Below the pieces are notes generated by a model, which worked only from the letters and a program-made list of their open reading frames with translations, searched no databases and was not told the origin of the DNA. The position numbers were made by a program, and so were the translations under genes. From the NCBI GenBank assembly GCA_041652575.1, contig JBAZHC010000008.1:46022-110021 (forward strand): DNA of 64,000 bases, given 5' to 3'. Below, one piece after another: positions 13,683 to 14,420 of the stretch. The DNA comes from Phycisphaerae bacterium (lineage in GTDB: Bacteria > Planctomycetota > Phycisphaerae > Sedimentisphaerales > UBA12454). Each line of letters opens with the position of its first letter. Position 1 is the stretch's first letter.

Positions 13683-13716
13683 TTAGTCCTTAGTTTTGAG
13701 TTTTTAGTTTTGAGTT
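13683..13716 (-). repeat. Heptamer tandem array, 3' arm of inverted pair
   Basis: Minus strand reads AACTCAA AACTAAA AACTCAA AACTAAG GACTAA. It contains the stop of the 106-aa ORF and the AAGGA RBS of nifU. Confidence 0.9.
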
Positions 13717-14010
13717 ATATACAATTACATCATCTTTTATTTTTTTACATTTTAAAATGGTGCACATTACACATACAAAAAAGAGAACACTATAAGCAAT
13801 TACAAAACTTAAAACAGATTGTAAATCTGGAAATTCTTTCTTATTCCACAATGGACTCATCAATATTACAAGATTTAAAATTATAGAAGCAATAACACTG
13901 AATAACCCTTTTGGAATACGACACAATTTAGCTATACAATAAAATAATATACCAAACAAAAGCCATACTATTGTCTGCCCCAACACTTGTGCTGCATAGG
14001 TCATCATCAT
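13690..14010 (-). CDS. Hypothetical small membrane protein (about 3 TM)
   Basis: 106 aa with three hydrophobic stretches. ATG overlaps the stop of the upstream gene (TAATG). Last codons (YNSKLKTQN*) are read through the heptamer array. Confidence 0.6.
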   Translation of the reverse strand: MMMTYAAQVLGQTIVWLLFGILFYCIAKLCRIPKGLFSVIASIILNLVILMSPLWNKKEFPDLQSVLSFVIAYSVLFFVCVMCTILKCKKIKDDVIVYNSKLKTQN

Positions 14011-14372
14011 TAGTTTCCCATCTGCATTTTTTCATTTCCTGTTTTAACAATACTCGTTAATATTTTTATAATTTCTAAAGATTCTTTTAATAAATATTCC
14101 ACACTAACATCACTGCAAATTTTGGCATCCTTAATCAGTCGTAACCAATAATTTGTTTCCCTTGCTTCTTTTGACGCTATACACATCTTTGCATAAAAAT
14201 CCCTTTGACTTTGTCCCGCCAATGCCTCTTCAACATTAGCGCCTATACTCGTCCCTGAACGCAAGAGTTGTTTCGCAATTTCAAAATGTTTTTCGTCTTT
14301 AAGTTGCTGGCAGAACCTAAGTATACTTAACGCGAATTTATAACTTTTTTCTTTAATTATACTCTTTGCCAT
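14010..14372 (-). CDS. Four-helix bundle protein (23S rRNA-IVS protein / TIGR02436-like family)
   Basis: KSYKFAL...QLLRSGTSIGANVEEA...SQRDFYAKMCIASKEARETNYWLRL family signature. Confidence 0.93.
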   Translation of the reverse strand: MAKSIIKEKSYKFALSILRFCQQLKDEKHFEIAKQLLRSGTSIGANVEEALAGQSQRDFYAKMCIASKEARETNYWLRLIKDAKICSDVSVEYLLKESLEIIKILTSIVKTGNEKMQMGN

Positions 14373-14378
14373 ATCGTC

Positions 14379-14420
14379 AACTCAAAACTTAGAACTCAAA
14401 ACTCAAGACTCCGAACTCTT
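14379..14420 (+). repeat. Heptamer tandem array, 5' arm of inverted pair (in mRNA orientation)
   Basis: Plus strand reads AACTCAA AACTTAG AACTCAA AACTCAA GACTCCG AACTCTT. It overlaps the metY stop codon (14403-14405). Confidence 0.9.

Follow-up and report, generated by a model that had tools for sequence, protein, structure and literature searches.

A four-helix-bundle gene cassette framed by inverted heptamer arrays at the metY–nifU junction of a Phycisphaerae bacterium

The operon considered here lies in a Phycisphaerae bacterium (assembly GCA_041652575.1), within a window of 64,000 nucleotides of contig JBAZHC010000008.1 (positions 46,022 to 110,021 of the forward strand); coordinates given without a contig are those of the window. 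On the minus strand its genes follow the order iscR-like regulator, cysK, cysE, nadA, metY, a 120-aa open reading frame (ORF), a 106-aa ORF, nifU and nifS. The 120-aa ORF encodes a four-helix-bundle (4HB) protein, and both small ORFs together are bracketed by tandem heptamer arrays in inverted orientation, called here the 5′ and 3′ arms. The features of this cassette and its host genes are as follows:

12830..13678, minus strand: nifU, the downstream host gene (TIGR02000, E 1.3e-99)
13679..13700, minus strand: part of the native junction, CTCAAAACTAAGGACTAAAAAT, from the comparison of filled and empty junctions
13682..13716, minus strand: 3′ arm, five tandem heptamers of AACTCAA type (sequence; Tandem Repeats Finder, TRF, 13690-13716)
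13690..14010, minus strand: second cargo gene, an orphan membrane ORF of 106 aa with three hydrophobic stretches (ORF list)
14010..14372, minus strand: first cargo gene, 4HB, 120 aa (PF05635 / TIGR02436)
14378..14426, minus strand: 5′ arm, seven tandem heptamers of TTGAGTT type (sequence; TRF period 7 at 14379-14418)
14379..14410, no strand assigned: inverted-repeat core, left copy on the + strand, pairing with 13685-13716 (repeat search)
14403..15692, minus strand: metY, O-acetylhomoserine sulfhydrylase (PF01053, E 2.9e-138; TIGR01326, E 4.9e-207)

In the mRNA sense the 5′ arm reads TTGAGTA AGAGTTC GGAGTCT TGAGTTT TGAGTTC TAAGTTT TGAGTTG and terminates 6 nt before the 4HB ATG. It has stop codons in all three frames and, as the original prediction had it, begins inside the stop region of metY: the last seven codons of that gene and its TGA (14405-14403, 30 nt ahead of the 4HB ATG) come from the arm, and the protein ends in SKSSES here versus KKAQN in relatives. 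The 3′ arm, AACTCAA AACTAAA AACTCAA AACTAAG GACTAAA, was said to hold the cargo stop and the nifU ribosome-binding site (RBS), and both are there, the former as the TAA of the membrane ORF (13692-13690, 11 nt ahead of the nifU ATG) and the latter as the Shine-Dalgarno (SD) sequence AAGGA (13687-13691). The last eight codons of the membrane ORF also lie inside this arm, and at its other end the 4HB stop overlaps its start as TAATG.

The 23/25 complementarity noticed between the arms proved to be a sub-stretch of a 32-nt core (13685-13716 / 14379-14410) that is 88% complementary (28/32), its two copies being separated by 662 nt. Both arms are direct tandem arrays without an internal palindrome, and pairing occurs only from arm to arm across the 662 nt. 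The sequence details of the original prediction all hold. Folding bore out the hairpin: in a 761-nt RNA the terminal stem is predicted to close in both the minimum-free-energy and the centroid structure (z = -3.2, none of 20 shuffles as stable), and it spans the nifU RBS, as had been supposed.

The 120-aa protein belongs to a large, widespread family, PF05635/TIGR02436, which came to light first in intervening sequences of ribosomal RNA and for which no function is reported in the literature found. Its assignment is firm: it matches PF05635 (E 3e-24, 85.7 bits, cut-off 33.8), TIGR02436 (E 1.6e-29, 102.3 bits, cut-off 24) and, over residues 3-112, PDB 2rld (E 4e-23), while its match to the bAvd Pfam family is weak (E 0.006, under the cut-off). 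Of the motif RxxxSxxxNxxE, quoted for the 4HB family (PMC3936711), R38, S42 and N46 are invariant across six aligned paralogues of the genome, and E49 completes it in the focal protein. Comparison with orthologues gave dN of 0.20-0.34 with saturated synonymous sites, and judged by these substitutions the protein is under purifying selection. The second cargo gene had been described as a translationally coupled membrane ORF. The TAATG overlap is present; the ORF itself has no homologue among the 5.8 billion proteins searched and is therefore an unverified orphan gene. It has no Pfam, NCBIfam, PADLOC or PHROG match and does not occur in the orthologous cassettes of relatives. The cassette is indeed transposase-free, the ORF list and profile searches giving no transposase gene and no gene other than 4HB and the orphan. 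No Rfam family matched in 13300-14800. A defence or phage origin of the cassette was considered and rejected, there being no PADLOC or PHROG match.

The nifU neighbourhood was retrieved from 40 relatives, and junction counts cover 30 loci. The metY–nifU junction is empty (7-35 nt) in 22 of the 30 and occupied in relatives scattered among them; the cassette has not become fixed there, a state that the original prediction had anticipated. The empty junction of relatives of family f1 reads …GCNTTG AAAAAAGCT CAAAAC TAA GGACTAAAAAT ATG, the sequence before the start codon being …GCTCAAAACTAAGGACTAAAAAT ATG…; CTCAAAACTAAGGACTAAAAAT is identical or nearly so at these sites and already has two unit-like heptamers. 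Three other genomes hold a homologous cassette at this junction, with like arms, without the membrane ORF and with 4HB proteins 65-73% identical to the focal one, and one genome of the same genus retains a solo 3′ array alone. Of the four filled genomes, three each have empty genomes as their sisters in the NifU tree, and G017 stands on a branch of its own. At empty sites MetY ends in KKAQN, much as in outgroups, an indication that this tail is ancestral; it speaks against reading the empty sites as excision footprints, for which clear solo-array relics elsewhere would speak. The 4HB gene has 33% GC and the whole cassette 31%, against 46-47% in the metY and nifU flanks. From these comparisons, the cassette is an AT-rich accessory segment absent from most relatives. 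Where filled and empty alleles were compared, at three junctions, the insert replaces part of the native spacer.

The identical cassette was also recovered from a landfill metagenome, a sample separate from the groundwater of the source, and metagenome DNA contigs have empty junctions in other organisms. In the metagenome runs X3 and X4, summed contig depth rises to 180-320 over the 5′ arm only (14352-14448); arrays of AACTCAA/TTGAGTT type are therefore common in other organisms of landfill/soil metagenomes. One X4 contig links arm to arm (13716 to 14380), resembling a gene-less element.

The same design recurs within the genome, which has nine TIGR02436 matches, eight of them canonical. All eight canonical 4HB genes are bracketed by inverted short-period arrays of seven unit families (GGGTACA; GAACTCA; TTGAGTT; AATCAAAA; ATTGAAG, in two copies; ATCCGAA; GGTAACG-like), and with most of the 73 loci from other phyla described below this upholds the expectation that other family members carry flanking inverted arrays. 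All eight are also co-directional with both neighbours and stand at cistron junctions of housekeeping operons, among them leuA–leuC, fabH–fabD, tmk–holB, gspF–gspG and truA–glycosyltransferase (gene names read from the sequences). The ATCCGAA cassette bears ~0.85 kb of additional cargo, and two paralogues of the genome have common arms at different sites. The leuA–leuC and fabH–fabD junctions are likewise empty in most relatives, with homologous cassettes in scattered ones (88-93% identity at leuA–leuC, 80% at fabH–fabD), and in other relatives unrelated gene-less inverted arrays of the AAGGAAGTA and AGCGTAT families replace the native spacer. Since one junction holds unrelated array families in different relatives, such junctions act like hot spots at which array families turn over.

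Gene-less inverted arrays of unrelated units (AAGGAAGTA, AGCGTAT, AAGTTTAAAA) were recorded at fabH–fabD in loci L122, L132 and L133, at leuA–leuC in L153, L155, L157, L161 and L167, and at metY–nifU in L018; some of those that replace the native spacer supply a new SD. Across the focal genome, a lenient search (score at least 12) gave ~49 candidate inverted-array pairs, with direct-orientation matches equally frequent. Many of the genome's array pairs are gene-less, and the ATTGAAG and AGGGTAT families count 21 and 19 arrays, respectively. Within the window, TRF placed gene-less facing arrays at 27206-27272, 28337-28422 and 57984-58007 (CACTAAGA/CTTTGTGC, AGGAAACA/TTCCTTAC and TCTTAGTG). A solo GTTTTGAGTTTTAAGTTTTGAGTTTTGAGTT array, of the focal unit family, lies in frame within a glycosyltransferase gene directly downstream of another 4HB cassette (C6:170579-170609), where it encodes …QLKTQNLKLKT….

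An order-wide search with the focal protein covered 201 genomes, of which the best 30 loci were fetched. Among these, the subfamily armed with TTGAGTT/AACTCAA (53-72% identity) occupies two junctions: metY–nifU is filled in at least 13 genomes of four families, and a lemA–htpX-like junction, empty in the focal genome, in at least 16. Among the loci fetched, no genome is represented at both junctions. Subfamilies that are 44-53% identical use AAGTGAA, GAATGAA, GAATTGA or GAAGTAC units, each at its own junction or junctions. The 4HB tree groups by junction (2 changes, versus 8.8 in shuffles), and the lemA–htpX 4HB proteins also cluster by host family. Solo arrays and a truncated 4HB gene are signs of decay. 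On present sequences, this looks like long residence punctuated by frequent loss and rare transfer, and not like a rampant transposon.

Some sequence details of the two junctions were also recorded. The downstream genes at both begin ATGTGGGA, in nifU (MWDY/MWEY) as in the htpX-like gene (MWEQ/MWEL). Both native sites share an 8-mer, AAAACTAA/TTAGTTTT, whose orientation and whose side of the insert are opposite at the two sites (relatives L180-L208 and L230-L259; near C10:25873). The empty lemA–htpX junction of the focal genome has a hairpin resembling a repetitive extragenic palindrome (REP), TTAGCCCCCGGTTTTACCGGGGG, CTAA/TTAG-footed and ~60 nt upstream of the htpX-like start (near C10:25873).

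A survey beyond the order took the 80 loci closest to two canonical copies, a profile of all six local paralogues being too divergent for locus finding; arrays were scored in 73 loci and neighbours in 62. Hosts include Planctomycetota, Nitrospirota, Bacteroidota, Ignavibacteria, Verrucomicrobia, Chloroflexi, the candidate phyla radiation, Atribacterota and Clostridia. Tandem arrays occur within 150 nt upstream in 56 of the 73 4HB loci (77%) and downstream in 61 (84%), and on both sides in 48, compared with 17.6% of control windows from the same loci. Period 7 predominates; the median arm is 31 nt long with ~4.6 units, the 5′ arm stops ~20 nt before the start codon, and the 3′ arm starts at the stop codon. 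Both neighbours are co-directional with the 4HB gene in 57 of 62 loci. The sufB–sufC junction of a Bacteroides fragilis metagenome-assembled genome (MAG) is occupied precisely by a canonical 4HB cassette whose arms, AGTAGATG/AGTAGTCG, have period 8 (L077:1430-1940). The idea that the heptamers serve as translation stops in all frames was rejected as a general one: all-frame stops are found in only 36% of 5′ arms and 33% of 3′ arms.

The repeat unit is tied to the protein. Unit type and protein divergence are correlated (Mantel r = 0.49, a value reached in none of 2000 permutations), complementarity of the unit consensuses is higher inside a locus (5.6/7) than from one locus to another (4.1/7), and units remain 5/7 alike at 30-50% protein divergence. 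In orthologous cassettes, G-to-A changes in the 5′ arm are matched by C-to-T changes in the 3′ arm, turning TTGAGTT/AACTCAA into TTGAATT/AATTCAA.

We consider it the best explanation, with a probability of about 0.6, that the 0.75-kb stretch is a promoterless, transposase-free selfish cassette akin to the ORF-bearing intervening sequences (IVSs) of 23S rRNA, living in an mRNA operon instead. Read-through from the host promoter would transcribe it, and abutting cistrons together with the SD kept in the 3′ arm would prevent polarity on nifU. In the transcript the arms would pair into a ~32-bp imperfect stem around the cargo, with the nifU RBS hidden in its paired part. By analogy with the Coxiella and Leptospira IVSs this stem would probably be a substrate of RNase III; ribosomes finishing the cargo ORFs may melt it. 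Each 4HB subfamily seems to have its own type of heptamer unit, and for this reason the arrays are probably also cognate sites of the pentameric 4HB protein. Movement would be rare and seems to favour junctions that already hold unit-like sequence. An RNase III gene (rnc) is present in the genome; this sole copy lies ~1.3 kb from another 4HB cassette, one with ATTGAAG arms (C8:20186-20827 and C8:22170-22541), probably by coincidence.

The nearest described relative is the Coxiella burnetii IVS, 428 nt in helix 45 of 23S rRNA and closed by a terminal stem of 28 bp. Its ORF encodes S23p (PF05635) and is directly preceded by three or four tandem heptamers (GACAGAT), at the first of which RNase III cleaves the IVS; a mobile origin has been discussed for it and its S23p was judged expendable (PMC4990558). 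With this and the related IVSs of Leptospira, Brucella and Xanthomonas, the cassette shares a PF05635 protein, a length of ~0.4-0.75 kb, an AT shift, sporadic occurrence, the lack of a transposase, terminal inverted repeats forming a stem of ~28-32 bp around the ORF, and heptamers upstream of the ORF. It differs in lying between protein-coding cistrons and not in an rRNA helix (9, 25 or 45), in having heptamer arrays as both arms, which supply the upstream stop and the downstream RBS, in carrying a second, membrane ORF, and in the purifying selection on its protein, where the Coxiella S23p was judged expendable.

Several observations weigh against this explanation. No RNA run carrying the focal locus or the B. 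fragilis example was found. Arms are only 82% Watson-Crick paired in the survey, and their mismatches show no wobble excess (G·U 69 versus A·C 68), hence no RNA-specific signature; the mirror order of unit variants is weakly supported (median z 1.7, a value biased by the arm definition), and the repeated unit itself may be under selection, to the same degree as the stem or in its place. The survey sample is itself biased, being drawn from relatives of armed genes. No target-site duplication was recognisable between filled and empty alleles at the three junctions, where genome divergence blurs the boundaries, and neither a recombinase nor near-identical copies at different sites were found. Finally, two junctions only among the best 30 loci and a 4HB tree that largely tracks host families are compatible with ancient residence plus loss.

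A tentative alternative, which overlaps with the selfish cassette, shifts the weight from hairpin to protein: the arrays would chiefly be cognate sites of a homopentameric 4HB ring, some five heptamers per arm, bound as single-stranded RNA or DNA and serving autoregulation, protection or synapsis of the ends, with the hairpin secondary. The covariation of unit type with protein subfamily speaks for it, as do the retention of one unit by the TTGAGTT subfamily at two junctions while 44-53%-identical subfamilies use others, and the likeness of units where synonymous sites are already saturated. So do the match between the median of 4.6 units per arm and the five chains of the entry for the closest solved relative (2rld), the mismatches without G·U bias, and the gene-less ATTGAAG and AGGGTAT arrays elsewhere in the genome; Xcc0516 is a pentamer (cited in PMC4990558). 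Against it, co-inheritance of gene and arms accounts for the covariation without binding, sequence-specific binding is not reported for the 4HB family, and several abundant array families of the genome, such as AAGGAAGTA and CACAAAG, are not accompanied by a 4HB gene of the corresponding type.

It is improbable that nothing was inserted at all, the arrays having grown by replication slippage from native unit-like sequences around a 4HB gene that is an old and often lost operon member. The AACTAAG GACTAAA of the native empty junction and the end of LemA, AGTTTTTAA, would provide such starting sequences, the 4HB tree mostly tracks hosts, and solo-array relics and the truncated 4HB gene show loss. 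Slippage leaves the inverted second array unexplained, however, and the same subfamily with the same arms stands at two unrelated junctions, two paralogues with common arms stand at different sites, the same junctions have, in other relatives, been colonised by arrays of unrelated families in place of the native spacer, and the cassette shows a strong AT shift.

Somewhat less probable still is a domesticated regulator of Fe-S/sulfur metabolism, with the stem as a gate on nifU translation and the 4HB protein as its modulator. The predicted stem does span the nifU SD, and the B. fragilis cassette lies between sufB and sufC of another Fe-S operon; most relatives with the same operon nevertheless lack the cassette, and the design recurs in unrelated operons (leu, fab, gsp, tmk-holB, ksgA, lemA-htpX). 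Genes named 23S_rRNA_IVP, read as CRISPR-associated, are also reported between cmr3 and cmr2 (PMC3936711).

The fold has a further relative. Avd binds nucleic acid. That of Bordetella phage BPP-1 has a related pentameric four-helix-bundle fold (PMC10053308), which with the sub-threshold bAvd match is what speaks for a 4HB protein acting as the Avd of a diversity-generating retroelement; this is very improbable, for the 97%-complete genome has no reverse transcriptase (PF00078) match and no TR or VR partner despite its nine 4HB genes, which excludes such a role or retro-mobility, and the focal gene stands single in a housekeeping operon with nothing retroelement-like beside it.

The selfish cassette akin to rRNA IVSs can be extended, with less confidence than the explanation itself. 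It is conceivable, if far from established, that 4HB pentamers and their subfamily-specific arrays form one self-contained, transposase-free genetic system in which the arrays are both cognate sites and homing device. Either arm might then recombine in register with native sequence having one or two units, a step we regard as speculative, and it would be for this reason that the cassette settles at transcribed junctions (rRNA helices, cistron boundaries, cas operons). Under the same doubtful extension, the heptamer arrays without a gene, inverted or solo, that many bacterial genomes have in excess could be what it leaves behind, and the 23S rRNA IVSs might, just as tentatively, be copies that landed in rRNA.

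Some native sites resemble the arms: AACTAAG GACTAAA lies beside the 3′ arm at metY–nifU, the AGTTTTTAA end of LemA beside the 5′ arm, and leuA–leuC has TAGGGTATA. Compared with GC-matched windows, arm-to-native similarity gave p = 0.006 at metY–nifU, 0.06, 0.056 and, at fabH–fabD, 0.99 (Fisher combination by hand, ~0.006). This likeness is suggestive of in-register homing in the sequences compared, and the four mixed p values count among the points that weigh against the selfish-cassette explanation.

Short-period arrays of this kind have been described apart from any 4HB gene. The "global regulator binding sites" of classes 1-3 in Geobacter metallireducens (PMC2700814) are inverted pairs of tandem hepta-, octa- or nonamers with family-specific units, often between co-transcribed genes such as moaA–mosC and proB–proA; gene-less pairs of this sort are plentiful in the focal genome and its relatives. 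The focal arms fall within the paired-site definition, being an inverted pair of at least three tandem heptamers between presumably co-transcribed genes. The Xanthomonas GGGAATC convergent pairs (PMC4692102) and the heptamer repeats of cyanobacteria and Beggiatoa (PMC4679880) are likewise short-period tandem arrays. In the passages searched of the three sources, the Geobacter, Xanthomonas and cyanobacterial repeats differ in enclosing no gene and in having no 4HB link, and are treated as regulator/IHF sites or G-quadruplexes. Miniature inverted-repeat transposable elements, non-autonomous transposons and REP elements (with bacterial interspersed mosaic elements and REPINs, REP doublets forming hairpins, and their RAYTs, REP-associated tyrosine transposases) are also small, dispersed and intergenic, with inverted ends and gene-less copies beside gene-bearing ones. 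The cassette differs from them in ends that are tandem arrays, not unique terminal inverted repeats or self-palindromic REPs, in the lack of a transposase and of a visible target-site duplication, and in its orientation bias to host transcription (the 57 of 62 loci above).

No description of the general design, a 4HB gene plus inverted heptamers, was found in the literature searched, where only the rRNA form appears. This locus contributes allele pairs, filled and empty, for three junctions in several genera and families, a further cargo gene, a subfamily at two sites and a hint of arm-target match. The origin of ORF-bearing rRNA IVSs has been open since 1993 (PMC4990558), and why intergenic heptamer repeats are in excess in bacterial genomes is likewise unexplained (PMC4692102, PMC4679880). 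The locus and its relatives link these two puzzles through a gene-in-heptamer-hairpin module in ordinary operons, which varies between relatives and whose unit families are common to gene-less arrays. If confirmed, it would be a new class of minimal selfish cassette riding host transcription without polarity, and the family's own repeats would become a ligand of the protein that can be put to the test. For annotation it is a warning that such genes inside suf, nif, cas, fab and leu operons would be passengers and not pathway members.

A second small cargo family was noticed beside arrays in the same genome. Its proteins (121-124 aa) resemble GxxExxY / PD-(D/E)XK proteins and were recognised by motif only, at 78333-78708 in window numbering (= contig C8:124354-124729), C10:61126-61488, C2:180898-181260 and C6:116700-117059. 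Nine tblastn matches in the genome adjoin octamer or nonamer arrays of CACAGAGN, CACGAAGN or CACGAATNA, of which some pairs are inverted and some direct.

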